Part shown: one piece after another, positions 1 to 62,343 of the stretch | Layout of the letters: each line of letters starts with the position of its first letter | Numbering within the stretch: position 1 is the stretch's first letter | Assembly (NCBI GenBank): GCA_038087875.1 | Contig: CM075988.1 | Span: 16,928,001 to 16,992,000, forward strand | Source: Malacoraja senta | Taxonomy: Eukaryota | Length of the DNA stretch: 64,000 nt | Reading direction: 5' to 3' | Made by a program: the position numbers and the translations under genes | Notes under the pieces: generated by a model | The model's input: the letters and a program-made list of their open reading frames with translations, nothing else | Told to the model about the DNA's origin: nothing | Databases searched by the model: none

Positions 1-504
1 ATGCGGCTAGCATGACCTAACGTGGTCGCGCTAGCCGTGCAGCCTCGCGGGGCCGGTCCCACTTCGATCGCCGGAGCTGCATGGAGTTGTGCGGAGCTCC
101 GAAAAACTGACAGTTCAAAAATTCCGCGCTGCAAAGGCCTGCCGGCCCACTGCCGCATGGAGGCCGCTTGCACTGCCTCGACGCCGCACGCACCGCCTCG
201 ACGCCGTACGCAGCGTCTCAACGCCGAACGCAGCGTCTTGATGGCGTACGCCTAGCGCGTGGCGTTGCGCGATGACGTCACCGCCCGGCGTGCCGTTGCG
301 TGATGACGTCACCGCCCGACGTCGTGCGACGTCCAAATTCAGTCGGCCCACCTCCTGCCCAGCTGATTGGTGAGTTTGATGTCGGGACCAGCTCCATACG
401 GCTCCGCGGTTGGAAGTGGGACCGGCCCCGCGAGGCCGTACGGCTCAAGCCCCACGTTTGGTCACGCTCGCCGCATGCAGTCGCATGCTGGTGGGACAGG
501 CCCT
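1..504. mobile_element. Foldback MITE, PIF/Harbinger-like, left end cut by the window edge
   Basis: Positions ~1-90 are the imperfect reverse complement of ~385-476 (e.g. GCCTCGCGGGGCCGGTCCCACTTC). The right end GTGGGACAGGCCCT is followed by TAA. Terminus shared with the elements at 1772 and 14467. CpG-rich and non-coding. Confidence 0.75.
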
Positions 505-983
505 TAAGATCGTTAGCGATAGGAGCAGAATTAGGCCATTTGGCCCATCAAGTCTACTCCATCATTCAATCATGACTAATCTATCTCTCCCTCCTAGCCC
601 CATTCTCCTGCCTTCTCCCCATAACCTCTGACAGCCTCTATCAGTATCCTCAGTATATACCATATCTGCAGTTCCTTTCTGCACAAGGACATATTACAGC
701 AGATGGTAGAAAGCCTTGACCAAAAGGGCAGGATTTAAGAGGCCGATTCTGCAGAGCGGATTAGTGAAGGGAATGCCAGAGTTTCAGGACTTGGCACCAG
801 AAGGCATGGTCAGCAATGGCAATGTGAGCAAATTTGATCAGGATTGGAGCAGTATTTTTCTGAAGGTTAGTAAGTTTGGAGAGGTTACAGAGTTGTGGAG
901 GCCATGGAAACAGAATGAGGAATTCTAAACCATAAAGCAGTTTAACCGGAAGATTGCAGGGCTAAAAAGAATATCCATCAGCA

Positions 984-1267
984 GGGCGGCACGGTGGCGC
1001 AGCGGCAGAGTTGCTGCCTTACAGCGCCAGAGACTCGGGATCGAACCCTGACTACGGCCGCTTTTCTGAATGGAGTTTGTACTTTCTCCCCGTGACTGCG
1101 TGGGTTTTCTCCGAGGTCTTCGGTTTCCTCCGTCACACCAAAGACGTACAGGTTTGCAGGTTTATTGGCAAGGTGTGTAAATTGTCCCTAGTGTGTGCAG
1201 GATAGGGTTAGTGTGCGGGGATCGCTGGTTGTCACGGTCGGTTTCCATGCTGACTCTGACTCTGACT
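984..1267 (+). mobile_element. tRNA-derived V-SINE (HE1-like)
   Basis: A-box TGGCGCAGCGG, B-box-like GGATCGAACC and V-domain GGAGTTTGTAC..TTCTCCCCGTGACTGCGTGGGTTTTCTCC. Confidence 0.85.
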
Positions 1268-1771
1268 GTGGACAGACCACAGAACCACTCAGGTGCAAAG
1301 TGCTTGGGATGACCCAAATCTATGACTTGCTTTTATAAATAGAAGCCTCTCTTCCGTTCCATTGACATGACAGACTGTATTGGCATTATTATAAAGAAGA
1401 AATGTGCATGGGATTAGAGGAACTCACTCCTGCTGATGAATGACTCTTGCAATTCCTGAGTCTTTTCACATTAATTGTACGAAGTTAAATTGTCTGAAGT
1501 TGCAAAGCAAGAGATGACTGTCCAGAAATTCAATCAGATAATACAACTGAAAATTGATTTTTTTTTCCAAGGGTGAAATGTGATAATAATTTGTTTGGAG
1601 TTGCTTTGCGTCACTGGGCACTTCAACTGGGCAATTCCTCGCAAGCCTCGCACTTCTGCCCCAACGTGACTTCAACCAACTTAGAGGGGTCTGTTAAAGT
1701 CTGGTTGTGTATTGGCCCCACTACACAGGAGCTCGCAGCTCATGAACAGACTAGGTGCAGAAAACCTTTTA

Positions 1772-2301
1772 AGGGGCTGTCCCACTTGGGCGACCTAATC
1801 CGCGACTTCTGGCGAGTTTGCCCTCGACTCATACTCGCAGCATGGTCGACACGAGGTCGTAGGAGGTCTTTGTAACTCTCCTTCATGCTCGGGAGTAGTC
1901 CTCGTGTACTCGAGGCCTCAGCCAGGACGCGGCGTATTTTTTAACATGTTGAAAAATGCCCGCGAGTAAAAAAAGGTCGCCATGGAAAGAATCGATACTT
2001 TTTTTACTCGTAGGTTTAGTCGTAGTAGGTCGTAGTAGGTCAGCATGTTAGTCGTAGGTAATCGAGGGTAGTCGATGGTAGTTGAAGGTAGTCGAAGGTA
2101 GTCTTCAACATAGTCGAAGGGAGGCCGAATGAGATCGTCTTCACTCTCCACTATTCGGTGTCCAATTTTCCCGAAGTTAGTCGTAGCTGGTCGAAGCTAG
2201 TCTTCAACATAGTCGAAGGAGGTCTTCAACATGTCATTTTTTCAAACTCTCCTAAACTCTTCTAAACTCGCCAATTAGGTCGCCCAAGTGGGACAGCCCC
2301 T
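1772..2301. mobile_element. Non-autonomous PIF/Harbinger-like MITE, 530 bp, complete
   Basis: Perfect 28-bp TIR AGGGGCTGTCCCACTTGGGCGACCTAAT. TTA on both sides (1769-1771, 2302-2304) is a 3-bp TWA TSD. Internal GTAGTCGAAG-type short repeats. Confidence 0.85.
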
Positions 2302-2339
2302 TTAAACTCTGAGAGAACAAAACGAGTCAGTGATAAATA

Positions 2340-2565
2340 GGGAAGGATGGAAATTGAGGGAGAGAATGGGAGAGAGAAAGCAAAAATAGCAGTGGAAGAT
2401 AGGGGAGAGAGAGGTGAGAGAGAGAGGGGGGGGGGAGAGGGTGGAGATAGAGGGGGGGGGAGAGGGTGGAGATAGACGGGGGGGGAGAGGGGGGGAGGTT
2501 GGAGAGGGGGAGAGGTTGGAGAGGGGGAGGGAGAGGGGAGGGAGAGGCATAAAGAAGGGGACAAG
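2340..2565. repeat. G/A-rich low-complexity polypurine tract
   Basis: Runs of G and GA. Confidence 0.9.
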
Positions 2566-3330
2566 GAGGATTAGTTCTACAGAAACTATCCCAGAAATGT
2601 AAAATGGAAACAGGCAAATCATATGCATATTTCTGAAATTTCAACATGACCAGCCAAGGTAAAAATAAAACTTCTCCTCTGTTTTATAACAATCATTTGT
2701 TGCCATTTCACAGAAATGGTGCTCACATTTTGAAATTGTGGTGCAAAGGCAAAAAGTCCCTTTAAAAAAAGAACCCAGCTGCTGTTATTGAGTTAACCAC
2801 AGCAAACAGGATTAGCCTTGTACAGATTATCAACACTATCACAGCGATAGTTCATTAATCATTGAGAATTTTAGTTGCAAAAACAGCCAGTCATCTGACT
2901 GCATACATGTTTAACGTGCCTTGTATAATGTATAATAAATGGAGTACCATGGATCTAGCTGAGAGAAGGCTTTTTTTTTTAAATATGGGAGATGGCAGCA
3001 GATGTACAAGTGTAAATGTACTGCCTGGAATATCATTAAACCAATTACAGTTTGATTACACCTCAGCAGTTAAGAGGGGTGCTGTTTCCACTTTCCCCAA
3101 CCCCTTACCTAATGCACCTGCCTGTTTGCGATGAGGTTTCAGGGCATAATGTGGGCCAAAGATGGTTTTGACGATGATGATCATTAACAACTCACATTTA
3201 TATAGTCCCCTTAACACAGTGAAATCCAAAGATGCTTCACTGGAGGGGAATTGGCCAACTGCTGGCACTGGGCAACACATACAGCTCCGTTGCGTAAAAG
3301 CTTAGTCAAAGTGTTTTTTTAGGAGTATCT

Positions 3331-4326: not shown

Positions 4327-4534
4327 GTGTTAAAGAAGGAACTGCAGATGCTGGAAAATCGAAGGTACACAAAAATGCTGGAGAAACTCAGCGGGTGCAG
4401 CAGCATCTATGGAGCGAAGGAAATAGGCAACGTTTCATCTGAAGAAGGGTTTCGGCCCGAAACGTTGCCTATTTCCTTCGCTCCATAGATGCTGCTGCAC
4501 CCGCTGAGTTTCTCCAGCATTTTTGTGTACCTCC
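4327..4534. mobile_element. Foldback (inverted) Penelope pLTR derivative
   Basis: Perfect ~74-bp inverted arms (~4363-4436 and ~4459-4531) made of PLE terminal sequence. 14-bp TSD TATCTCTCTACTTT (4313-4326, 4535-4548). Confidence 0.85.
4439..4466 (+). ncRNA. Minimal hammerhead-ribozyme-like motif (GUU variant)
   Basis: CUGAAGA-A-GGGU(UUCG)GCCC-GAAAC-GUU. An identical motif lies on the minus strand at 12927-12954. Confidence 0.45.
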
Positions 4535-6445
4535 TATCTCTCTACTTTACCAGGCAACAATGTTGTCGGGGTCAAAATGTATATTTTTTTGTCAATTGAT
4601 AAAACCCAAGTAATTTTGTGGTTTCTTATAAACCATAGCAAGGGGAGAAAACCTTCCAATATTTACATTCCAATACGAGCAAATTAATCTGGGGGTGTGT
4701 TGGTGGGGTGGAGGAGAAGTCGTTGATTTTGATCACTATTTTTTAGCAGATAGATATGGGAATGGCATACGAGGTCACGGGAAGGAAGGTCAGGCAGAGG
4801 TCGTCACTGGGAACTCAGGATAGTGCAGCAACATATTTTTCCCGGTGGCCTCGAATACACAACAGCTGGTGCCACCATCTCTCATTATTGAATCTCCATC
4901 AGAGAGAGCATCCAAATGATTACACAGTGTCCGCCCTGGTCTTCGGAACAGAGAGTGCTTCCATGCAGATACAAATCAGTGCATCGACTTGCAACACACC
5001 AAGTCTCTGAGACACCTTGTAATAAAGGTGCTTTCATTACCCACCATTTCCAAAATACTTATTCTTTATTTTTGGACCCTTCAGATTCTTAACAATATCT
5101 GAAACCAGTTATTTCCCAATGCTGTCTTTCAGAGAACACACATGATGAAAAACACATTTTTTTTAAATCACTAGATTGGAATCATTTTTAATATTGCAAG
5201 TTTTCATGAATGCAATTTACAAGATGCAGAAATTGAGCAATTCAATTTTCCAAACATTTATTTCATAATTACCTCTCCTTGAATGAACCAGATTACAGGA
5301 AGGTTTAAAGAAGATTATTTATGTGCACCGGATTGGGTACACAATGTCAATTTGCCCTTCATTGCAGTTTCATACAATTTTCATAATTCCCCTCTTGAAC
5401 TGTTTAAAGATTGTCTACAATACCACATCGGAAAACAAATGAAACTCCTAAATTTTGAATATCTCACTCGCTCCATGGACTAGGGGAGAGGGAGGGGGTG
5501 GAAATCAAAATCATCACTCTATGATTGACTATGGCCGTACAGTCATACGACATGGAAACGGGCCCTTCAGCCCAACTCCAACATGTACGATCTACACTAG
5601 AAACATGCCCCATCTAAACTAAAATATGCCTTGCCTACACCAGAAAGGGTATAGAATAGAAAATGAACTCCTTATACAATTTAGGATATTACAAAGGGCT
5701 TCCAGGCCAATTAAGTGCTTTCTAACCATGGTCAATGTGGTATTACAGGAAGAACACAAACTAATAAGCCCCAAGCTAGCTCCTACATACTGCAAAGATG
5801 ATTTGTTTTATTGATGTTGAAGGATAATCAGAAGGAATAATGTCCCATGCTCTTCTAAAGATAATGTAACATGGGATCTTGTCGAAGAGCGGAAATAAGA
5901 ACTTGGTTTAACATCTCACCTTCAAGACCACACATCCAACAGCCCTCAATAACATCCAAAATGTCCCCAATCATTGGTACTGGTTTACTATTGTCATGTG
6001 TAGCGACATAGAATAAAACGTTGTTTTGTATGCCAACCAGACAAATCCTACAATGCACAAGCATGTCAGGTAGAGCTAAATAAAAAATATATACCTAGTA
6101 CAGAATATTGTGTTATAGCTACAGGGAAAGTGCAGATGAAAAGAAAGTGCAAGGGTTGCTCAGAGGTAGACTGGAAGATCAGGAATTCATCCCCAGCATG
6201 TGAGAGGTCCGTTCTAGCATCTGGTAACGGTGAGGAAGAAGCTGCTCATGCATCTGGTGGTACGTGCTTTCAAGCCTTTGTATCGTCTGTCTAACGGGTG
6301 AGGGAAGAAGAGAGAACGGCCAGGGTATAAGTGCACTGAGAGTCTGGCAAGGGCTAAGAGTGTAAAACCGGTAGATTAAAAGGACACAAAAAGCGACGAG
6401 GTAACTCAGCGGGCCAGGCAGCATCTCTGGAGAACATGGACAGGT

Positions 6446-6473
6446 GACGTTTCGGGTCGGGACCCTTCTTCAG
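6446..6473 (-). ncRNA. Minimal hammerhead-ribozyme-like motif (PLE pLTR)
   Basis: CUGAAGA-A-GGGU(CCCG)ACCC-GAAAC-GUC with no convincing stem I. Confidence 0.45.
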
Positions 6474-9837: not shown

Positions 9838-10098
9838 AGAGTTTAGTGATGCAGAGCAGAAACAGGCCCTTCGGCCCACTGCGTCCACTCTAACACTAGC
9901 ACTATCATACACACTAAGGACAATTTATAATTCACAGAAGCCAATTAACCTACAAACCAAACCTGTATGTCTTTGGAGGAAACCCACACCTTCACGGGGA
10001 GAAGGTACAAACTCTGTACAGACAGCACCCATGGTCAGGATCGAACCTGGGTCTCTGGCGCTGTAAGGCAGCAACTCTACCGCTGCGCCACCGTGCGG
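9838..10098 (-). mobile_element. V-SINE (HE1-like)
   Basis: tRNA head, V-domain and tail on the minus strand. Confidence 0.8.
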
Positions 10099-10109
10099 CC
10101 CATGTGGAG

Positions 10110-10340
10110 GAGCTCGCTCTTTTGTGGGGCACATCACTCTCTCTGCAATAACCATCTTGCGCTCCCACTTGAACGCCATTTTAACTCTCCTTCCCATTCA
10201 CAAACCAACCAACCTCGCCTTGGCCTTTTGTGCTGCCACAGTGAAGCCAAACACGAACTAGAAGAACAACACCTCATATTACACTTGGAGAGCCTACACC
10301 CAATGAATTTTCCAATTTCAGGTAACCTACACCCCTTCAT
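10110..10340 (+). mobile_element. Degraded Penelope-like GIY-YIG C-terminal fragment
   Basis: HFNSPSHS...LEEQHLILHL aligns to the endonuclease at 32911-33100. Confidence 0.7.
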
Positions 10341-10459
10341 TCCTTTTCCACTCCTACTCGTCCACTTATGTTCTCCCTTCCTTGTTTATCTTTCCAATCG
10401 CCAAATATAATTATTGGTAATAATTTTGTTTCTTGGGTTGCAAGTTATTTCCTTCAATT

Positions 10460-12716: not shown

Positions 12717-13190
12717 GTTTAGTTTAGTTTAGAGGAACAGCGCGGAAACAGGCCCTTCAGACCACCGAGTCCGCACCGACCAGTGATCCACGCACATTAA
12801 AGCTCCCCACACACGAGGGACAATTTACAATTATACCGAGCCAATTAACCTACAAACCTCAGGTACACAAAAATGCTGAAGAAACTCAGCGGGTGCAGCA
12901 GCATCTATGGAGCGAAGGAAATAGGCAACGTTTCGGGCCGAAACCCTTCTTCAGTCTGAAAGATGACATTTTTGTGTACCTTCGATTTTCCAGCATCTGC
13001 AGTTCCTTCTTAAACAACCTACAAACCTCCACGTCTTTGGTGCATGGGAGGAAACCGAGATCCCGGAGAAAACCCACACAGGTGACAGGGAGAACGGACA
13101 AACTGCGAACTGACAAGCACCCTTAGTCAAGATCGAACCCGGGTCTCTGGCGCTGTAAGACAGCAACTCTACCGCTGTGCCACCGTGCCT
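12717..13190 (-). mobile_element. V-SINE (HE1-like) with a nested PLE derivative
   Basis: (CTAAA)n tail, V-domain and tRNA head. Confidence 0.85.
12861..13015. mobile_element. Penelope pLTR derivative (partial foldback) inserted in a V-SINE
   Basis: Same terminal sequence as 4327-4534. 14-bp TSD AACCTACAAACCTC (12847-12860, 13016-13029). Confidence 0.85.
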
Positions 13191-21544: not shown

Positions 21545-21835
21545 GTAGGAATGAACTGCACTTGCAGGTTTAAATTGAAGAAAGACACAAAATGCTGAAG
21601 TAACTCAGCGGGATAGGTAGCAGGTACACAAAAATGCTGGAGAAACTCAGCGGGTGCAGCAGCATCTATGGAGCGAAGGAAATAGGGGATAGGTAGCATC
21701 TCTGGATAGAAGGAATGGTGACGTTTCGGGTCAAGAACCTTCTTCAGACTGAAGGTCTTCTTCAGTCACCCAATCCTTCTCTCCAGAGATGCTGCCTGTC
21801 CTGCTGAGTTACTCCAGCATTTTGTGTCTATCTTT
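21545..21835. mobile_element. Foldback pLTR derivative with a second pLTR fragment nested inside
   Basis: Inverted arms. The inner 63-bp fragment 21623-21685 is flanked by the 13-bp repeat GGGATAGGTAGCA (21610-21622, 21686-21698). Confidence 0.75.
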
Positions 21836-23170
21836 GGAAGAAAGATACTTGAGGAGGGGAAGGGCCAGACTACAGGGAAGGCACAAGGGAGTGTTCCTAG
21901 TCTGCCAGCTCTTTCACAGGGCTAGAACAAGCCCTATGGGCCAAATAGTCTCCTCCTGAGATTCTAAGATCCTATCACCTTGACAACACTCAATGAGACA
22001 TCATGTCTGATATCCTCAAAGGAGGCTCTGTACCCAATCAAATTTCATCTCTTTGTGACTGAATCCAAAATCCCAGGTGTGTGATTATAGTTTGTTTGCA
22101 TTATTTATAGCATTGATGTAAAATGAATGTTTAATTCAATATTTGATCCCACTTGCACATTTCCTCTTTCTAGCTGGACTACAATAACACTCGAGGCTAC
22201 AGATACCTTTTTCCAACCCTGCATCAACCCTGCATTGACATAGAATGGAACGACCAGCTGAATCAAAATACAACTGCAGAGAACTGTTTACCATTTTCCT
22301 GATGCTCTTTCGACTTTAAGAGACCATAAAGCTGACAAATTTAGAATCCCAAATTGCTTCGGAAAACTTGTGAAAGCAACCACTGAAGTGACCATGCCAA
22401 AGTCTGTGCAGCGTACATTATAGCAGCATTGTGACACAAGGAACTGCAGATGCAGGAATCTTGAGCCAAACGCAAATTACTGGAGGAACATCAGCGAGTG
22501 AGGCAGCATCGGTGCAAGGAATGGACTGGAAACCTCTTTGGTCGTTCGGAATCATTCTGATGAAAGGTCCCGACCAAAATGTCACCTATCCATTACCTCC
22601 ACAAATGCTACCTGATCTACTGAGTTCCTCCAGCACTTTGTGTTTTGACCATAAGTGCCTCCATTTGTCATTTACAATGCAGCACCTGTGCAAGGAATTT
22701 GGGCATTTCCTCTGCTATATTATAACATCGTACATTCAACATAAATTTATTAGACGAACACTGACAAGAATATTGTCACCTGCTATATTTGCAAATGAGC
22801 ACAATTGATGCAAAAACAGTTGTCATGATGGAACCAAGTAATTCTGCTATGGTTTATCACTAATTTAGTTTAGAGATACAGCATGGAAATTGTTCCTTTG
22901 CCCACCAAAGTCAAAGTCAAAGTAAATTGTATTCGTCACATACACCCGAAGGTGCAATGAAATGAATTTGGCTGCCAAGTCCAGGCTGACAAGTGATCAC
23001 CCATACACTAGTTCTATTCTACTCACTGGGGACAATAATAGAAACCTGCGAATTAACCTACAGACCTGCACATCTTAGGAGTGTGGGAGGAAATCCAAAC
23101 ACCCAGAGAAAACTGCGCGGTCACAGGGAGAATGTACACACTCCGTACAGACAGCGCCCATAGTCAGGAT

Positions 23171-31648: not shown

Positions 31649-32111
31649 TTTTAAAGAAGGAACTGCAGATGCTGGAAAATCAAAGGTACACAAAAATGCT
31701 GGAGAAACTCAGCGGGTGCAGCAGCATCTATGGAGTGAAGGAAATAGGCAACGTTTCGGGCCGAAACCTTCTTCAGACTGATAGGGGGTGGGGAGAAGAA
31801 AGGAAAAAAGGAAAAAGGCGGAGGAGGAGCCCGAGGGCTGGGGGAGGGGAGGAGACAACCAGAGGGCTGATGAAGGGGAGGAGACAGCAAGGGCTAGCAG
31901 AATTGGGAGAATTCAATGTTCAAGCCCCCAGGATGTAGACTGCCCAAGCGGAATATGAGGTGCATTTCCTCCAATTTACGGTGTTGCTCGCTGTGGCCAT
32001 GGAGGAGACCCAGGACAGTGAGGTCAGATACGGAATGGGAGGGGGAGTTGAAGTGCTGAGCCACCGGGAGGTCAAGTTGGTTATTGCGGACCGACCGGAG
32101 GTGTTCGGCGA
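31649..32111 (-). mobile_element. Penelope-like element 3' fragment (end of GIY-YIG + pLTR)
   Basis: Homologous to 32677-33135. Flanked by the 18-bp direct repeat AACGATCTTGATTCTATG (31631-31648, 32112-32129). Confidence 0.85.
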
Positions 32112-32672
32112 AACGATCTTGATTCTATGCTGTAGTACTATTCTGTGGAGGAGGATGCTGCAGGCAGTAGCACTATCGTGCAGTACCTACTACATACTTG
32201 CTGTACGCCTCAACCAAAAGATTAGACTGAGTTAATGTACAACGTTTTCAAGCTTCTGTCCACCAACAGCTGTGAGCTTGCTCCACGTTAAGCTGGACCT
32301 TATAAACCCGCTGCACCCTTTCAAATGACTCCATCATTATATTCGCATAATGGTGTGACATTATGGAACAATGTCATCGCAAAGCCTCTTGCTCTTCCGT
32401 CATTGTCTTTCAATGTCACTTTTAAGACTATACGGAATCTAAAGTGTGCATTAGTGAATGAATAATGAAGCTATAATTTAATCAAGAGGTTCCTATCGCC
32501 AACGATAAACCACAGCTCACAAAGCCAGGCAAAACCCTAGAGTAAGTGGCGGTCTCTGACGCTGCTGTCCAATTACAACAGCTTGATTTTACTTTATTCA
32601 CTTTGGTGAATTATCATTGTGTGGAGCATATCTGTGCTGGAGGAAGGGACTGGAGATCAAGACTATGCTGCA

Positions 32673-34231
32673 GTGTTTAAGAAAGAAATGCAGATGCTGG
32701 AAAACTCGAAGGTAGACAAAAATGCTGGAGAAACTCAGCGGGTGAGGCAGCATCTATGGAGCGAAGGAACTGGTGATGTTTCAGGTCGAGACCCTTCTTC
32801 AGACTGATGTGGGGGTGGGGGAGGGGGGTTGGGAAGAAGAAAGGAAGAGGCGGAGACAGTAGGCTGTGGGAGAGTTGGGAAGGGGAGGGGAAGGAGGGAG
32901 AAAGCAAGGACTACCTGAAATTGAAGAATTCAATGTTCATACCGCTGGGGTGGAAACTACCCAAGCGAAATATGAGGTGCTGCTCCTCCAATTTCCAGTG
33001 GGACTCACTCTGGCCATGGAGGAGGCTCAGGACAGAAAGGTCGGATTCGGAATGGGAGGGGGAGTTGAAGTGCTGAGTCACCGGGAGATCAGGTTGGTTA
33101 ATGCGAACTGTGCAGAGGTGTTGGGCGAAGCGATCGCCAAGCCTACGCTTCGTCTCACTGATGTAGAGCAGTTGACACCTAGAGCAGCAGATGCAATAGA
33201 TGAGGTTGGAGGAGGTGCAGGTGAACCTCTGCCTCACCTGGAAAGATTGCTTGGGTCCTTGGATGGAGTCGAGGGGGGAGGTAAAGTGACAAGTGTAGCA
33301 TTTCCTGCGGTTGCAAGGGAAAGTACCAGGGGAGGAGGTGGTTTGGGTGGGAAGGGACAAATGGACCAGGGAGTTACGGAGGAAGCAGTCTCTGCGGAAA
33401 GCCGAAAGGGGAGGAGATGGGAAGATGTGGCCAGTGGTGGGATCCCGTTGGAGGTGGCGAAAATGTCGGAGGATTATCTGTTGCATGTGACGGCTGGTAG
33501 GGTGGAAGGTGAGGACGAACTCTGACCTTGTTACAAGTGGGGGGATGGGGAGTGAGAGTGGAGCTACGGGATATAGAGGAGACCCCAGTGAGAGCCTCAT
33601 CTATAGTCGAAGAAGGGAACCCCCGTTCCCTAAAGAATGAGGACATCTCTGAAGCCCTGGTTTGGAACACCTCATCCTGGGTGCAGATGCGGCATAGACA
33701 GAGGAATTGGGAGTAGGGGATAGAGTCCTTACAGGAAGCATGGTGGAAGAAGTGTAGTCCAGATAGCCATGGGAGTCAGTGGGTTTGTAGTAGATGTCGG
33801 TTAGTAGTCTGTTACCTGCGATGGAGGTAGTGAGGTCTAGAAATGGTAGGGAGATGTCGGAAATGGTCCAGGTGAATATGAGTGCCGGATGGAAGTTAGC
33901 GGTAAAATGGATGAAGTCAGTGAGTTCTGCTAGAGTGCAGGAGGTGGCACCAATGCAGTCATCAATGTAGCGGAGGTAGAGTTCGGGGATAGGTCCACAG
34001 TACTCAAATTGTGTTTCTTATTTTCTTTTGGTGCTCTTGAAATTGAATTCTGTCCTTGATTTGTGTACTGTGGTGTTTTTATATTTAATTTATTCCGATT
34101 ATGTGTTTTGTATTTTTTTGTGATTCTATGCATTGTAAGGTGTCCTTGGGTTTTAGAAAGGCGCCAGTAAATAAAATGATTATTATTATTATTATTATTA
34201 CTCCTCAAACAAGGATTGACTCGAACAAGGA
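32673..34231 (-). mobile_element. 5'-truncated, frameshifted Penelope-like retroelement (RT C-terminus + GIY-YIG endonuclease + 3' pLTR), Neptune-like
   Basis: The minus strand encodes LYLRYIDDCIG (YIDD at 33958-33969), DIYYKPTDSHGYLDY, a Cys linker PCNRRKCYTC and the GIY-YIG-like NLIYCICCSRCQLLYISETKRRLGDRFAQH...EQHLIFRLGS...GMN (stop at 32911). Flanked by the 14-bp direct repeat AAGACTATGCTGCA (32659-32672, 34232-34245). Confidence 0.9.
34004..34200 (+). mobile_element. LINE/SINE 3' tail with (ATT)n end nested in the Penelope-like element
   Basis: An AT-rich segment ending AAAGGCGCCAGTAAATAAAATG(ATT)n interrupts the RT region, and PLE-like sequence resumes after it. Confidence 0.55.
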
Positions 34232-34271
34232 AAGACTATGCTGCAAAATGGAGTGACAGTATAATTTAGCT

Positions 34272-34414: not shown

Positions 34415-34732
34415 CTGCTTTAACGCGGATATTTGGGCTCCTTATCTTGCCGGCTATGTTTTCAGCCGTGCAGAAGTAGTCATTGTCGTGGATAAAGCTA
34501 TTAAACCCTGATGGCGAGAAGGGATAGAGCTGCAAGGTGCCGTTGAGGTGGACGTGGCGGATGTTGGGCACGTCGTAGATGTCGTCTTTCGTGGCGAGGT
34601 ACCAGCGGAGGGCAGTGCCTGCGGAGCCTGCAGCTGGGCACGGCAAGACCGTGCCCACCGAACTGGAGAAGATCACCTGTTGCAACGAGTCATTCACAAA
34701 GTACAGGCTTGTCCTCGGATCCTCACTGTGTG
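34415..34732 (-). CDS. DSCAML1: DSCAML1 coding exon 2 (first Ig-like domain), 318 bp, phase 1-1
   Basis: Translation [37 protein letters not shown]...[65 protein letters not shown] matches vertebrate DSCAML1 Ig1 as I recall it. [22 protein letters not shown] and SPNIRVKA distinguish it from DSCAM. Acceptor cccctgacAG at 34734-34733; donor GTAAGG at 34414. Confidence 0.96.
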
Positions 34733-39352: not shown

Positions 39353-39945
39353 TTTCATAGAAACATAGAAAATAGGTGCAGGAGGCCATTCGGCCCTTCG
39401 AGCCAGCAACGCCATTCATTGTGATCATGGCTGATCGTCCCCTATCAATAACCCGTTCCTGCCTTCTCCCCATATCCCTTGACTCCACTAGCCCCTAGAG
39501 CTCTATCTAACTCTCTCTTAAATCCATCCAGTGACTTGGCCTCCACTGCCCTCTGTGGCAGGGAATTCCATAAATTCACAACTCTCTGGGTGAAAAAGTT
39601 TTTTATCACCTCAGTCTTAAATGACCTCCCCTTTATTCTAAGACTGTGGCCCCTGGTTCTGGACTCGCCCAACATTGGGAACATTTTTCCTGCATCTAGC
39701 TTGTCCAGTCCTTGGATAATTTTATATGTTTCTATAAGATCCCCCCTCATCCTTCTAAACTCCAGTGAATACAAGCCTAGTCTTTTCAATCTTTCCTCAT
39801 ATGACAGTCCCGCCATCCCAGGGATCAATCTCGTGAATCTACGCTGCACTGCCTCAATCACAAGGATGTCCTTCCTCAAATTAGGAGACCAAAACTGTAC
39901 ACAATACTCCAGATGTGGTCTCACCAGAGCCCTAATACAACTGCA
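39353..39945 (-). mobile_element. CR1 LINE 3' fragment (RT C-terminus)
   Basis: RPHLEYCVQFWSP...VQRRFTRLIPG...YEERLKRLGLYSLE...RTRGHSL with a (TTTCTATG)n tail. Confidence 0.9.
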
Positions 39946-40761
39946 GAGAGGACCAGAGAGAAAGTATCTTATCGAGATGCATCACAACCTGGTTTGGGAA
40001 CAGCTCCAGCCAAGACCACAGGAAATTACAGAGTTGTGGATGTAGCCCAGTCATTATACAAACCAGCCTCCCTCCCATTGACTCCATCTACATTTCATGC
40101 TGCCTCGGCAAGGCCATCAGCATAATCAAGGACCAGTCTCATCCCGTTCACTCCCTCTTCTCCCATTGGGCAAGAGGTACAGAAGTGTGAAAGCACACAC
40201 CTCCAAATTCAGGAACAGTTTCTTCCCAGCTGTTCTCAGGCAACTGATGGTCCTCTCAATAGCTCAAGTGTGGTCCTGACCTCCCATCTCCCCCACTGGA
40301 GACCTTTGAACCAACTTTAATCAGACTTCATCGCACTTCAATGTTATATCTCTGGTTAGTTTAGAGATACAGCATGGAAACACCAGTTCTTTTTTACACA
40401 CTAGAGACAATTTACGTCGCCCATTCCTTCTCTCCCGAGATGCTGCCTCACCCGCTGAGTTACTCCAGCATTTTGTGTCTACCTTCAATTTAAACCAGCA
40501 TCTGCATTTCTTTCTTACACCGTCAAACCTGTATGTCTTTGGAATGTGGAAGGAAACTGGAGCATCTGCAGACAATGCACACGGTCACAGGGCAAGCATA
40601 CGAAATCTGTACAGACAGCACCTGTGGTTAGGATCATACCTGGGTCTCAGGCACTGTAAGGCAGCAACTCTACCACTGCGCCACTGTGCTACCCAAATGT
40701 TGCACTAAATGTTGCATTAAACTCTTTATCCTTTATCTGCACACTGGGGATAGCTTGATTG

Positions 40762-41519
40762 TACCTGGCCCTCAACACCAGCAAAACCAAGGAACTGATT
40801 GTGGACTTTGGAAGGAGTAGGATGGGGACCCACAGTCCAGTTTATATCAACGGGTCGATGGTTGAAAGGGTCAAGAGCTTCAAATTCCTGGGCGTGCACA
40901 TCTCTGAAGATCTTTCCTGGTCCGAGAACAATGATGCAATTATTAAGAAAGCACATCAGCGCCTCTACTTCCTGAGAAGATTACGGAGAGTCGGTTTGTC
41001 AAGGAGGACTCTCTCTAACTTCTACAGGTGCACAGTAGAGAGCATGCTGACCAGTTGCATCATGGCTTGGTTCGGCAACTTGAGTGCCCTGGAGAGGAAA
41101 AGACTACAAAAAGTAGTAAACACTGCCCAGTCCATCATCGGCTCTGACCTCCCTTCCACAGTCGCTGCCTCAAAAAGGCTGGCAGCATCATCAAGGACCC
41201 ACACCATCCTGGCCACACACTCATCTCCCTACTACCTTCAGGTAGAAGGTACAGGAGCCTGAAGACTGCAACGACCAGGTTCAGGAACAGCTACTTCCCC
41301 ACAGCCATCAGGCTATTAAACCTGGCACGGACATAACACTGAACTTTACTAGCCAATACTGTTATTTGCACTTTATCAGTATATTGACCATTGTGTATAT
41401 ATTTATAGAATGCCTTGTAGTAAATGCCTACTATGTTCTGTTGTGCTCAAGCAAAGCAAGAATTTCATTGTCCTACCAGGGACACATGACAATAAACTCA
41501 CTTGACTTGACTTGACTTG
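40762..41519 (+). mobile_element. Rex1/Babar LINE 3' fragment
   Basis: LNTSKTKELIVDF...FKFLGVHIS...KKAHQRLYFLRRL...FYRCTVESMLT with a (CTTGA)n tail. Confidence 0.85.
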
Positions 41520-42929
41520 TATTCATATGGTGTTTTCTTTGACTGGATAGCTTTTCACTGTACCTCTGTACACATGACAATAATAAGCTAAACGAAAATG
41601 GAAGATTCTCCCAGTGCCTTGAGCATCATTTATCTTTCAACTGACCTCCTCCCTCCCAGCACAAAAAAAAAACGATGATTGCTATCACTGCTGTTTCTGG
41701 GAGCTTCTTGTGTGCAAATTGACTTCTAAATTTTTGCATTTCAAATCATTCAAAAATACTTAATTTAAATTGATGGAACAGATGAACAAGGTCATTCAGG
41801 CTAGACAGAAATGCTGGAGTAACTCAGCGGGTGAGGCAGCATCTATGGAGAGAAGGAAGAGGCGACATTTCAGGTCGAGACCCTTCTTCAGACTCAGGGT
41901 CCCGACCCGAAACGTCGCCTATTCCTTCTCTCCTCACTCCCTGAATTCCTCCAGCATTTTTGCCTACCTTCGATTTTTCCAGCATCTGCAGTTCTTTCTT
42001 AAACAGGTCGTTCACGCTGCTGTTTCCATGACGGGAATGCAGCAGGTACATATCGACTACGTTGCTATACTCCGAATGAGATTTCATTGCCAGCAAAACA
42101 TTTAGAAATGGTTTGGAGGCCACGAGATTGATGCAAGCCAGCCTTGGAGACACAAGAGATTGCAGATTTTTAGCAAAAAATAAAGTGCTGGGGGATCTCA
42201 GCCGGTCAGGCAGTATCTGTGGAGGGAAACGGACAGACGCCGTTTCGGGTCAGAGGCCTTCATTGGCCTCAATCTGAATCACACTGCCTTAACGCCTTTC
42301 TGAGTCGAAAAACTATCATCCTCTTTTCAAAAGGCCTACAGACTAGGAGTGGTATAATCACTTCTCTCAAGCAACCACTGAACCAATTGATAGTTCCAAT
42401 GAAGACACAAGAGACTGTAGATACTGGAATCTTGATCAAAACACAAAGTGCTGGAGGAATTCGTCTGGTCAGGCAGCATCTGTGATGGATCAGCACCAGT
42501 GTGAGAATGTTGACACAGGAATGATGCTCCCCTTGGCTCCGATGTGACCTGGGGTTATATCTCAAAACAGAGACATTAAAAAGTCCAAAGATCATATGTC
42601 CATTCATTCCGATGAACAGCAGAACTAATTTCTTCTCTCTCTCTCCACTTTTATTAATGAGTCTTCCCATCAGTCCTCTGTGCCTTTGAGCCATTCATTA
42701 CAATACCGTGGAGATATGGTTACCATAGCAAGTCACCTTTGTTTATTTCCCATCTTATGGACAAAATGGATGTCTGTAAAGATGGAATCTTGATATCCAG
42801 TGACAATCCCATGTGGGATTGCTCCAGGACGATGGTGCAGAGATACAAGATCTCAGCCACAATCTAATTAACTGGTAGAGTGAGCGAAGGGGCCAAATAT
42901 CACCTTCCTGTTTCCATTCTGTGTATTAT

Positions 42930-43654: not shown

Positions 43655-43953
43655 AGCACGGTGGCGCAGCGGTAGAGTTGCAGCCTTACAACGCTCGCAG
43701 CGCCGGAGACCCGGATTCAATCCAGACTACTGGTGCTGTCTGTACGGAGTTTGTACGTTCTCTCAGTGACCGCGTGGGTTTCCTCCCACACTCCAAAGAC
43801 GTACAGGTATGTAGGTTAATTGGCTTGGTGTGCGCGTAAATTGTCCCTGGTGTGTGTTGGATAGTGTTATTGTGTGGGAATCGCTCGTCGGTGCAGACTC
43901 GGTGGGCCGAAGGGCCTGTTTCCATGCTGTATCTCTAAACTAAACTAAACTAA
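43655..43953 (+). mobile_element. V-SINE (HE1-like)
   Basis: tRNA head, V-domain and (CTAAA)n tail abutting a Rex/Babar fragment. Confidence 0.85.
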
Positions 43954-44668
43954 GCCAGCCATCCCCCAAAACTCCTGTGCTCATTAATGATGAATCCATC
44001 TCCATCACTGACACATTCAAACTCCTTGGAACCCACATCAGCAACAACCTCAAATGGAGGACAAACGCAGACCACATTTATGGGAAAGCCCAGCAAAGAC
44101 TTTTCCATCTCCGACAGCTAAGGAAGTTCAGAGTAAGATCTCATCTCATGCTCCGCTTCTATACAGCCATCGTTGAAAGCATCCTCACTTCATCCATCAC
44201 AGTCTGGTTCGGCAGTCTCCACTCACTCTCCCGGAAGAAATTACAGCTCATCATCAACAGAGCATCAAAAATTATTGGCTTACCCCTACCATCCCTTGAA
44301 TCACTTTATCACAATCGGTCACTGCACAGAGCCCGCAAGATCATCTCTGATCCTACCCACCCTGCACACTATGCCTTTCAGCTACTGCCCTCTGGGAGGC
44401 GTTACAGGTCAATTGCCTCCAAAACAAGCCGCCTCAAAAACAGTTTCATTCCCACTGCAATTAACATGTTAAACTCTGTACGGTGAGGAATAAGAATAAG
44501 CATGGCACTTATGTATTATGTAATGTGTCTGTCTGTATGTACATCTATGTTATAAGTTTAATGTTGATGAAATGTTGGAACCTGTACCGAGCTGTACTGA
44601 TAACAAATTCCACCAGCCTGGCTGTGTGGACATTAAAATATACAATACAATACAATACAATACAATAC
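43954..44668 (+). mobile_element. Rex1/Babar LINE 3' fragment, divergent subfamily
   Basis: FKLLGTHISNNLKW...KAQQRLFHLRQLRKF...FYTAIVESILT...LPSGRRYRS, open for 169 codons, with an (AATAC)n tail. Confidence 0.85.
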
Positions 44669-48394: not shown

Positions 48395-48498
48395 GAAAGG
48401 CACAAAAATGCTGGAGTAACTCAGCAGGTCAGGCAGCATCTCTGGAAAAAAGGAATAGGTGACGTTTCGGGTCAAGACCCTTCTTCAGACTTCAGACT
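48395..48498 (-). mobile_element. Penelope pLTR derivative
   Basis: PLE terminal motif with 14-bp TSD GATGTCATTCTGGA (48381-48394, 48499-48512). Confidence 0.8.
48461..48488 (-). ncRNA. Minimal type I hammerhead-ribozyme-like motif (PLE pLTR)
   Basis: CUGAAGA-A-GGGU(CUUG)ACCC-GAAAC-GUC: core, stem II and a GUC triplet are present. Stem III is the loopless palindrome ACGU and stem I is only ~2 bp. Activity not shown. Confidence 0.55.
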
Positions 48499-49620
48499 GA
48501 TGTCATTCTGGACCTCACCACAGCCACAAAATAATGGATGTTTTACTTTTTAATTCAATTCAATTTGAGAACAAAATGTCTCAATGTTGTCGCAATGTCA
48601 TTTTCCCTGAACAATTCCATTACTGCTGAAGGAGAACTAATGTTAATGGAATCTCCAGAGTCTTCTTCATCAACAGGAGATAACTTATCCTTATATGGGA
48701 CATGCTCTCACATATAAACAACAGCAGATAACCTATTATCCATATAAATAGGGCCATGGGTCTTCCAGAAATTAAGGGCAACTTTGGCAAAGTGTTAGAA
48801 ATCCTAACATCTTAGGTGAAAGGCAAGTGGGGAAAATAAAGTGACCTTTATCTGCAGGTGAGGTTTGTATTTCTCCAGTATCCAATTACCCCAAAACAAA
48901 AGATAACTACAGATTTCACCCCACCCGTCCAAATCACCCTCCCCCTCTTCAAAACTTAAAACTAACTTGATTCTTCAATTTACCAGCTCTGACAAATGGT
49001 CTTCGACCCGAAATGTTAACATTGCTTTTCTTTCCACAGATGCTGCCTAGCCTGCTGAGTGTTTCCAGCATTTAGTGGGTTTATTACTGATGTCCAGCAT
49101 CTGCAGTTTTCTCTGATTTTAGATTCTGGCTGGCCACAAAGCAACTAAAACCTAGCTGGCTAAAGCCGTTGAAAATGAAGTGCTCGTACAGGAACTAACA
49201 TTCTAGTCAAATCTAACAGCTTCCCAATATTAATACAATTTTGGTGATTGATAGCAGATTACAGCAGAAGTCAAAACCTTTAATCCTTGTCTTCACCATT
49301 GCATATTATTAATACAACTCAAAATTCCTCATGGAAAGTTGGAAGTTTACACAATACTGTTAGGTATTCCAGAAAGGGGTGATAACCAGTTTTATGTCAA
49401 ATATATATATATATATTTTAATTTGGCAGTAAGGCTGGTGCACCTTTCGTCAAGCCTAGGTCAAGCTAGGTAAATTTTAAGTGTAATAAGGTAACTGGAA
49501 ATTATGACAAAAAACTGGTTAATAGTAAAAAGATTTGCTTCTCAAAGACAGCACACGAATGATGGATAGAAAGCAAGGATTGGGCTTAATGTCCCTTGGC
49601 TTAGTCTACTATTTAATAAG

Positions 49621-60470: not shown

Positions 60471-61219
60471 CATGAACCAGGGGCTGTGCGGGAGGCTTCA
60501 GACCAAACCAGCAGCCAGTGGTGAGAGACGCAAGGTATAATCTTTGGCGCAGATTGACACAAAATGCCGGAGTAACTCAGCAGGTCAGGCAACATCTCTG
60601 GAGAAAAGGAATAGGTGATGTTTCAGGTCAAGACCCTTCTTCAGACTTAATCTTTGGCCTGTTCCATTTGGGCAGAATCGGGTGTACTAAAATTATCTTT
60701 GATGTTTCTGAGTTTTGTTGAAGTTGGGACAGTACCCGAAACGTCGCCGATTCCTTCTCTCCATAGATGCTGCCTCACCCGCTGGGTTACTCCAGCATTT
60801 TGTGTCTACCTTCTATTTAACCGGCATCTGCAGTTCTTTCTTAACCTAAAGCAAGAGTTCAACTGGACACTTAAAAATGCGCTCACAGCATCTAGTGAAG
60901 TGAAGCTTTAACATGAAGTCCATCAGGAACAGCTGACGGAGATTGGTTTCTGCAGCTGATGAATGCTCAATTAAACGAGCCCAAAAATATATTTACGTCT
61001 GATTTGTTATCGCAGCAACATCAGAGGCCATCTGGGATCAGAAATATACACCATCCCCCACACCAACTGCTGTAACTCAGCATCATCATCCACTACAGCG
61101 CATCCGAACACCAGGATTGTCCAGGGAAGCTTCCAAGAATTAGTATTCATCTCTGGCATCAGGTGCCGCTCAGAGATTGCCCAGAATCGGGGTTTTCAGA
61201 CTCAAATTACATTCCAACA

Positions 61220-61564: not shown

Positions 61565-62343
61565 GTTAGCAAAAACAGGAAGGCAGATTATTATCTAAAT
61601 GGTGTCAAGTTGGGAAAAGGGTAAGTACAACAGGATCTGGGGGGTCCTTGTTTATCAGTCAATGAAAGTAAGCATGCAGGTACAGCAAGCAGTGAAGAAA
61701 GCGAATGGCATGTTGGCCTTCATAACAAGAGGAGTTGAGTATAGGAGCAAAGAGGTCCTTCTGCAGTTGTACAGAGCCCTAGTGAGACCACACATGGAGT
61801 ATTGTGTGCAGTTTTGGTCCCGTAATTTGAGGAAGGGCATTCTTGCTATTGAGGGAGTGCAGCGTAGGTTCACAAGGTTAATTCCCGGGATGGCGGGACT
61901 GTCATATGCTGAGAGAATGGAGCAGCTGGGCTTGTACACTCTGGAGTTTAGAAGGATGAGAGGGATTCTTATTGAAACATATAAGATTGTTAAGGGCTTG
62001 GACCCGCTAGAGGCAGGAAACATGTTCCTGATGTTGGGGGAATCCAGAACCAGGGGCACAGTTTAAGAATAAGGAGTAAGCCATTTAGAACGGAGACGAG
62101 GAAACACTTTTTCACACAGAGAGTTGTGAGTCTGTGGAATTCTCTGCCTCAGAGGGTGGTGGAGGCCAGTTCTCTGGATACTTTCAAGAGAGAGCTAGAT
62201 AGGGCTCTTAAAGATAGCGGAGTCAGGGGATATGGGGAGAAGGCAGGAACTGATTGTGGATGATCAGCCATGATCACATTGAATGGTGGTACTGGCTCGA
62301 TGGGCTGAATGGCCTACTCCTGCACCTATTGTCTATTGTCTAC
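61565..62343 (+). mobile_element. CR1 LINE 3' fragment
   Basis: AVKKANGMLAFI...LYRALVRPHMEYCVQFW with a (CTATTGT)n tail. Confidence 0.9.

Follow-up and report, generated by a model that had tools for sequence, protein, structure and literature searches.

A probable CpG-decayed minimal hammerhead ribozyme in the pseudo-LTR of a Penelope-like element of Malacoraja senta

Introduction

A 64,000-nucleotide stretch of the Malacoraja senta genome (contig CM075988.1, positions 16,928,001 to 16,992,000; hereafter the window) carries, shortly after the endonuclease of a Penelope-like element (PLE), a short motif that resembles a hammerhead ribozyme. Is this motif a ribozyme, is it kept as one, and how did its many copies come to lie in the window? 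Minimal hammerheads of PLEs have a published consensus, NNN CUGANGAH GNNNNN..NNNNNC GAAAN palindrome NU H NNN, with a conserved extra base between positions 9 and 10.1, a conserved G10.1-C11.1 pair, and a palindromic 15.2-16.2 (PMC4209133, Cervera & de la Pena 2014). We conclude, at a probability of roughly 0.86, that the motif is a minimal type I hammerhead, decayed at CpG sites, which sits in the pseudo-LTR of a Penelope-like retrotransposon (likely a Neptune element), and that this copy is likely inactive.

Results

The focal element and its hammerhead

The motif lies in a truncated and interrupted PLE, close to a second one, with the following parts:

34231-32673, minus strand: 5'-truncated Penelope-like element carrying the focal motif, with a 14-bp target duplication on both sides
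34232..34245, minus strand: 5' copy of the 14-bp target-site duplication
34199..34231, minus strand: 5'-most piece of the truncated PLE
34006..34198, strand not given: unrelated insert of ~193 bp nested in the PLE, AT-rich, with a (TAA)n end and flanking GAGTA duplications
32911..34005, minus strand: 3' part of the PLE ORF, frameshifted, with the RT YIDD motif and thumb, a C-x4-C-x2-C linker, and a GIY-YIG-type endonuclease
32806..32910, minus strand: pyrimidine-rich 3' UTR
32803..32805, minus strand: AGU, the 5' strand of helix I, which forms 2 bp with ACC (32774-32772)
32775..32802, minus strand: focal copy of the minimal hammerhead (core, stem II, and one half of helix III), with the predicted cut between 32775 and 32774
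32673..32774, minus strand: remainder of the pseudo-LTR to the 3' end of the element, with an optional tail of ~31-35 nt and a predicted AGAUGCUG/CAGCAUUU hairpin
32659..32672, minus strand: 3' copy of the 14-bp target-site duplication
31649..32111, minus strand: second truncated PLE (endonuclease end, UTR, hammerhead, tail), with an 18-bp target duplication

The nested insert has no second copy within the 64-kb window. The ORF shares 52-70% identity with PLE proteins of sharks and rays (66% with the best match, from Mobula), and it aligns to P0002 at 52% over 372 columns (tblastn, E 1.5e-113). Pfam recognizes RVT_1 and GIY-YIG in this homolog and returns no match for the decayed window protein itself. 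The Zn-finger-like linker of the window ORF reads CNRRKCYTC, with cysteines (C772, C777, and C780) that are nearly invariant in alignment A1, and a CX2-5CxxC linker between RT and endonuclease marks Neptune and Nematis elements (PMC8557442). Judged from this linker, which is common to both clades, and from the ribozymes of relatives, which match the Acropora Neptune motif, the element likely belongs to Neptune. Features of endonuclease-bearing PLEs found here include 5' truncation, target duplications, an optional tail of 30-40 bp, and head-to-head copies. The translation of P0003 (Stegostoma) ends by running through the hammerhead region, and P0008, a Rhinoraja neuromedin-U receptor model, ends in a PLE endonuclease C-terminus, likely through an annotation artefact or exonisation.

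As RNA, the focal motif (minus strand, 32802-32775) reads CUGAAGA A GGGU CUCG ACCU GAAA CA UC, with AGU 5' of the core and ACC 3' of it. Its C3 lies 108 nt past the endonuclease stop (32911), in the sense of the element, in agreement with the ~110 nt given by the original prediction; in the second element the distance is 117 nt, and the hammerhead there (31776) has a 1-nt deletion in stem II. The predicted stem II register, GGUC/GACC, was off by one, the actual stem being GGGU/ACCU with the loop CUCG. Two CpG decays, C11.1>U and G16.2>A, the latter in helix III, mark the focal copy, which is likely dead because CA replaces CG in helix III and G.U stands at 10.1-11.1. A further endonuclease 3' fragment of the same family, at 9949-10410(+), has CAG|GTAACC at the stop and lacks a downstream hammerhead.

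The motif agrees with the published minimal consensus in every column (PMC4209133, Fig. S3). The features of a canonical type I hammerhead, a helix I of ~6 bp with loop contacts to helix II, are missing, helix I being 2 bp, and no Rfam hammerhead family matches in the window (E<=1), around the best copy (E<=10), or in the two metagenome relatives L001 and L002. The extra A, the loopless ACGU helix III, and the very short helix I had been taken to define a variant; all three already appear in PMC4209133, which gives 2-bp helices I for D. virilis, Culex, and Oikopleura. The reading as a new variant is unsupported because the consensus, the extra base, and the 2-bp helix I are already published there.

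Copies in the window

The window contains 13 exact matches to CTGAAGA..GAAA, where 1.38 would be expected (0 of 100 shuffles), and 11 of the 13 belong to the family. A profile search finds 38 element-end pieces totalling 3,040 bases, or ~0.6 per kb, of which 26 cover the motif, and a covariance model finds 23 window matches at E<=1, 10 of these being its own training sequences. The core CUGANGA...GAAA...UH is intact in the focal copy and, overall, in 10 of the 26. The G10.1-C11.1 pair is GC in 13 and has become GU through CpG decay in 8, the focal copy included. The 15.2-16.2 palindrome is CG in 13, TA in 1, and decayed to CA or TG in 10, the focal CA being broken. Helix I has 2 bp in the family; the third pair, A.C, never forms. 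Only two of the 26 copies (48488 and 34399) are complete, with core, four stem II pairs, palindromic helix III, and at least 2 bp of helix I. The following copies are referred to below:

48395..48498, minus strand: solo copy with a 14-bp target duplication; its hammerhead (48488-48461) is the most complete in the window
6381..6473, minus strand: solo copy beginning at C3, core intact, no helix I
60549..60647, minus strand: solo copy beginning at the A three bases before C3, with an 11-bp target duplication
4327..4534: two young copies, head to head, sharing a single 14-bp target duplication, one arm tailed and the other untailed, hammerhead at 4439-4466(+)
12861..13015: two young copies, head to head, sharing a single 14-bp target duplication, with a hammerhead at 12954-12927(-)

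Four copies had been singled out as cleaner than the focal one. They lie where stated and do carry GUC or GUU, but three of them (6473, 12954, and 4439) keep 0, 0, and 1 bp of helix I. The reported variation of the stem II loop likewise stands in part: CCCG and UUCG mark subfamilies, but CUUG, like CUCA, is CpG decay of CUCG. Some copies have features of their own. Within 21546-21837, a young subfamily copy (21685-21623), with a 13-bp duplication, is nested in an older copy that belongs to a head-to-head unit, and the young copy starts within 1-3 nt of the predicted cut. The head-to-head pairs at 4394-4501 and 41848-41931 give sub-threshold Rfam matches to the mir-559 and mir-577 hairpins, and such pairs, if transcribed, would yield long double-stranded RNA.

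Conservation, covariation, and relatives

In the 22 copies extending to the 5' edge, mismatches at non-CpG positions number 7/215 in the core against 152/1127 downstream, with 14/44 in loop II, so the excess core conservation that had been set beforehand as a test of the ribozyme reading is seen in the window copies. A base-matched permutation gives p 0.0006 for the core and p 0.002 for its four interior columns, which are free of end effects; these values overstate independence because the copies are related. At the level of lineages, a shared variant occurs in 0/10 core columns and 20/66 others, which is not significant (Fisher p 0.055). Position 7, which is free, varies among A, U, and C while the core stays fixed.

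Outside the window we located two metagenome matches by pattern, L001 and L002, and eight loci by protein homology, the latter probably animal DNA inside bacterial bins. Seven of these eight have the same 4-bp-stem motif ~100-140 nt past an endonuclease end; L007, the remaining locus, has a copy upstream of the match and in opposite orientation. A GGGC..GCUC stem, as in the published Acropora Neptune motif, occurs in L004, L005, L009, and L011. In L001 the motif lies near a PLE RT fragment, and in L002 it stands at the 5' end, 184 nt before the first ATG. When L001 and L002 are compared with the element end in the window, the motif alone aligns (L002, E 0.09). A pattern match from a viral collection, L003, comes from a contig without PLE protein and was treated as unrelated; no PLE relative was found in that collection, and a pattern scan of prokaryote genomes gave 0 matches.

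Other observations concern these relatives themselves. L002 has an apparently intact 902-aa ORF (1-3018) with RT, Zn-finger linker, and GIY-YIG, for which no solved structure was found. A C replaces U4 at L004 2615, L005 2062, L009 1991, and L006 4113-4152, seen by direct view in L004, L005, and L009, and this core variant escapes the usual CUGA descriptor. Minimal hammerheads with a longer stem II, of other PLE families, lie on the same contigs (L004 4739; L006 2187 and 295).

We aligned 15 motifs, 10 from window copies with an intact or near-intact core and 5 from relatives, leaving out L004-L007 and L009. The base between positions 9 and 10.1 is A in all 15 rows. Five of seven pairs change on both sides, a result reached in 1 of 500 shuffles, and the covariation score is 0.385 against at most 0.137 for slid controls; stem II was imposed in the search, by pattern for L001 and L002 and by a descriptor with at least 3 stem II pairs for the other relatives. 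Helix I was in no search pattern, and all three of its pairs covary across relatives. The predicted covariation of stem II appears across relatives and is absent inside the window, where no double-sided changes occur, just one-sided changes and CpG decay. As read from these alignments, selection on the ribozyme core is visible, and core conservation together with covariation across relatives supports the proposal of a minimal type I hammerhead in a PLE pseudo-LTR.

Predicted folding and RNA reads

Folded as monomers, six of six sequences have a predicted helix I probability below 0.05, and stem II is out-competed in 7 of the 9 window copies in which the stem is intact (fold prediction). In many copies, folding predicts an evolved "off-switch" helix that joins the core to the pyrimidine tract farther downstream; we reject it as a general feature because it is more stable than in shuffles in just 4 of 16 sequences.

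In a polyA run of the same or a related species, ~6% sampled, 13,328 of 7,335,232 reads belong to the family. C11.1 is present in 1916/2716 and 2372/3057 of the family reads (70-78%), and G16.2 in 1940/2677 and 2163/3082. Depth falls from ~4,600 over the 5' half of the motif to ~280 just upstream and, over the motif, is about equal in both directions. Reads ending at 32804 and 32805 (632 and 708) have unrelated flanks, with an upstream agreement of 0.32-0.34. Another 881 end at 32807, and part of the depth step arises because some of these run into the UTR of another subfamily. No pile-up of read ends at the cut site is listed in this one polyA run, standard RNA-seq showing cut ends poorly, and the 15 listed of 402 candidates include no RNA joint, whether splice or circular. 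Three contigs of run X8 have a joint on the 32914-32804 diagonal, with unknown letters between.

The 5' boundary and head-to-head copies

Where do copies begin? Among the 35 that do not run on into the pyrimidine-rich UTR, 19 have their start within model positions 1-5, and just one starts within positions 30-34, near the cut; the profile model itself begins at position 1, and copies with a divergent UTR, such as 48989, could mimic a sharp start. Independently of the model, a target duplication fixes the 5' end in three copies (60647, 48498, and 54476), and an inverted partner does so in several others. In seven head-to-head pairs the two copies are no more than 25 nt apart. The two young pairs each sit inside one 14-bp duplication with one arm tailed and one not, a third pair has a 12-bp match, and for 5 of 8 units tested no exact match exceeds 7 bp. 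The sequence CTTC-AG(A/T)CT-GAA, intact or decayed, stands at several junctions. Head-to-head palindromes at the 5' ends of pseudo-LTRs are known and have been ascribed to self-priming (PMC3846280). We regard uncut RNA, perhaps starting at the ribozyme, as the likely template because 19 of 35 copies begin at the 5' edge and 1 near the cut, and because the young pairs share one 14-bp duplication.

Downstream of the ribozyme, at 32755-32720 and 32700-32690 (minus strand), AGATGCTG can pair with CAGCATTT before the tail or, alternatively, with CAGCATCT inside it. The nearly invariant columns of AGATGCTG, CAGCATTT, and CAGCATCT may mark the two start sites of reverse transcription.

At the 5' edge of the ribozyme stands TCAGTC, which is also the end of a pyrimidine tract plus CAG; by consensus motifs, it may be read both as an initiator and as a splice acceptor. 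That the edge is a transcription start is favoured at about even odds. A more specific scheme is tentative and, to us, rather doubtful: the RNA would begin at the first base of the ribozyme, reverse transcription begun 100 or 130 nt downstream would run off this 5' end, and the resulting strong-stop-like cDNAs would insert alone or in twos, with priming on either strand at a 14-bp staggered cut and head-to-head joining via the AG(A/T)CT near-palindrome.

On the side of splicing, a candidate 111-nt intron at 32914-32804(-) runs from the endonuclease stop to the CAG before the ribozyme (CAG|GTAG ... CAG|TCTG) and resembles the intron of D. virilis Penelope. In one old copy of the 26, 48989 (48950-49077(+)), a sequence like the last 24 nt of the endonuclease ORF nearly abuts the hammerhead (p 0.0003 per copy), as would result from splicing or deletion of the 3' UTR. 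Splicing as the source of the 5' boundary is disfavoured by the read ends at 32804-32805, which have no upstream sequence in common, and by the lack of a joint among those listed. The YAG is adjacent to the ribozyme in the window, L001, and L002 and 9 nt away in L008 and L010. A universal splice acceptor before PLE hammerheads was considered and dropped, because YAG is absent in L004, L005, L009, L011, and L006.

The host gene

The focal element has one Dscam-family exon beside it, the only one located in the window:

34419..34679, minus strand: host exon, first Ig domain of a Dscam-family protein (best PDB match Dscam, E 1.2e-9), same strand as the focal motif

The host gene may be DSCAML1; the atlas search did not separate DSCAM from DSCAML1. 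The idea that the motif was amplified across the introns of this gene is not supported, as the copies are ordinary 5'-truncated insertions not tied to it, and their orientation bias toward the gene is not significant (p 0.076 and 0.14). Other repeats are present: 39445-39981, 40759-41262, 43944-44486, and 61599-62066 are presumably ORF ends of CR1 and L2, and 43944-44486 has a Pfam ALKBH8_N match, likely to a repeat-derived model.

Discussion

Can the motif be explained without a ribozyme that cuts? It may have been kept mainly as a DNA or RNA cis-element, be it internal promoter, splice acceptor, or protein-binding structure, with a ribozyme that no longer cuts since helix I is just 2 bp. TCAGTC at the 5' edge, which we take to be initiator-like, has CGTCA 28-32 nt downstream, and downstream columns such as 54-57 and 83-86 match the core in invariance. 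An internal promoter is known from D. virilis Penelope, as is an intron that ends at helix I (PMC2377424), and 8 of 9 Xenopus dimers tested failed to cut (bioRxiv 10.64898/2026.07.22.740005). The missing read-end pile-up points the same way, but the RNA-seq is of a kind poor at cut ends, and the run may be from another species. Against this reading, the core and the paired helices are kept across relatives whose flanks cannot be aligned, and helix I covaries despite the search being blind to it, so that we consider it improbable.

Two further readings carry far less weight. That copies were co-opted to cut or regulate host pre-mRNA, as is thought for intronic amniote hammerheads, would fit the finding that, of the 26 copies with the motif, 18 share the strand of the Dscam-family exon, and the presence of family RNA in a polyA library; yet hardly any copies are complete, the CpG sites of the ribozyme decay freely (C11.1 changed in 8/22), and reads over the motif run in both directions alike, which makes it very improbable. 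Chance resemblance within a passively amplified repeat could appeal to the absence of an Rfam match and to copy number alone being uninformative on function, but it is contradicted by the same motif standing at the same place in distant relatives, and the location in the pseudo-LTR, the agreement with the published consensus, and the signals of conservation and covariation leave it a negligible share.

The minimal type I hammerhead of a PLE pseudo-LTR, our preferred reading, has close counterparts. The motif resembles that of Acropora digitifera Neptune in CUGANGA with an extra base, G10.1-C11.1, and a 4-bp stem II with a 4-nt loop, with the difference that helix I has 2 bp here and 3 there (PMC4209133). 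It is also like metazoan PLE hammerheads in GAAA-CG-UH without loop III, short helix I, pseudo-LTR location, and copies that are mainly solo, some on opposite strands (PMC4209133). With D. virilis Penelope it shares the 2-bp helix I and a YAG immediately before the ribozyme, whereas in that element splicing is demonstrated and helix III has a 2-nt insert (PMC4209133, PMC2377424). Non-LTR retrozymes are similar as non-coding pseudo-LTR derivatives with type I hammerheads, but they form head-to-tail tandem arrays, while the copies here are solo or head-to-head (10.64898/2026.07.22.740005); head-to-tail tandem units with complete ribozymes are absent among the 38 profile matches.

Minimal PLE hammerheads are described as mostly solo copies with low dimer activity (PMC4209133), and in an Anolis PLE unprocessed RNA is used and the ribozyme cuts only with protein (PMC11167929, Frangieh et al. 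2024). By analogy with these reports, we infer that cleavage depends on a dimer or on protein: in an active element, the cut 3' of GUC or GUU (C17) would occur only with helix III (ACGU x ACGU) from a second copy, or with the protein of the element aiding folding, or both, and would process tandem transcripts late in the cycle. The Anolis carolinensis Poseidon element PAc belongs to another clade, and its ORF starts inside stem II; in the relative L002 the first ATG lies 184 nt after C3. PAc is similar in that the ribozyme precedes two internal starts of reverse transcription, which delimit an optional tail, and its use of an uncut RNA template with extension of both target strands fits the head-to-head pairs in the window (PMC11167929). 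Copy ends and pairs fit the Anolis results in all three respects: internal starts defining the tail, both strands extended, and an uncut template. Solo and head-to-head copies would, on this model, be short insertions reverse-transcribed from uncut RNA, with synthesis beginning ~100 or 130 nt 3' of the ribozyme and stopping at the ribozyme's 5' edge; once inserted, they would decay neutrally, with no role in the host intron.

A cartilaginous fish is the host here, and none is among the 56 motifs aligned in PMC4209133. The matches listed in our literature search, whose coverage ended short of subscription journals and Repbase, include no paper on a chondrichthyan PLE hammerhead. One chondrichthyan genome was scanned with minimal type I models in a 2026 preprint, which reports retrozymes in it (10.64898/2026.07.22.740005). 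As a ribozyme finding, then, our results extend the 2014 motif to cartilaginous fish, where that preprint already reports hammerhead-bearing repeats. If the scheme in which the RNA begins at the ribozyme is true, the first step of Penelope replication would be preserved in shark and ray genomes as a very large fossil record, in which the template retains an uncut ribozyme whose 5' edge corresponds to the RNA end. Should the sharp 5' boundary and the single-event head-to-head pairs prove genome-wide, they would offer a cheap test of the start of the RNA, the state of the template (cut or uncut), and the origin of inverted pseudo-LTRs.
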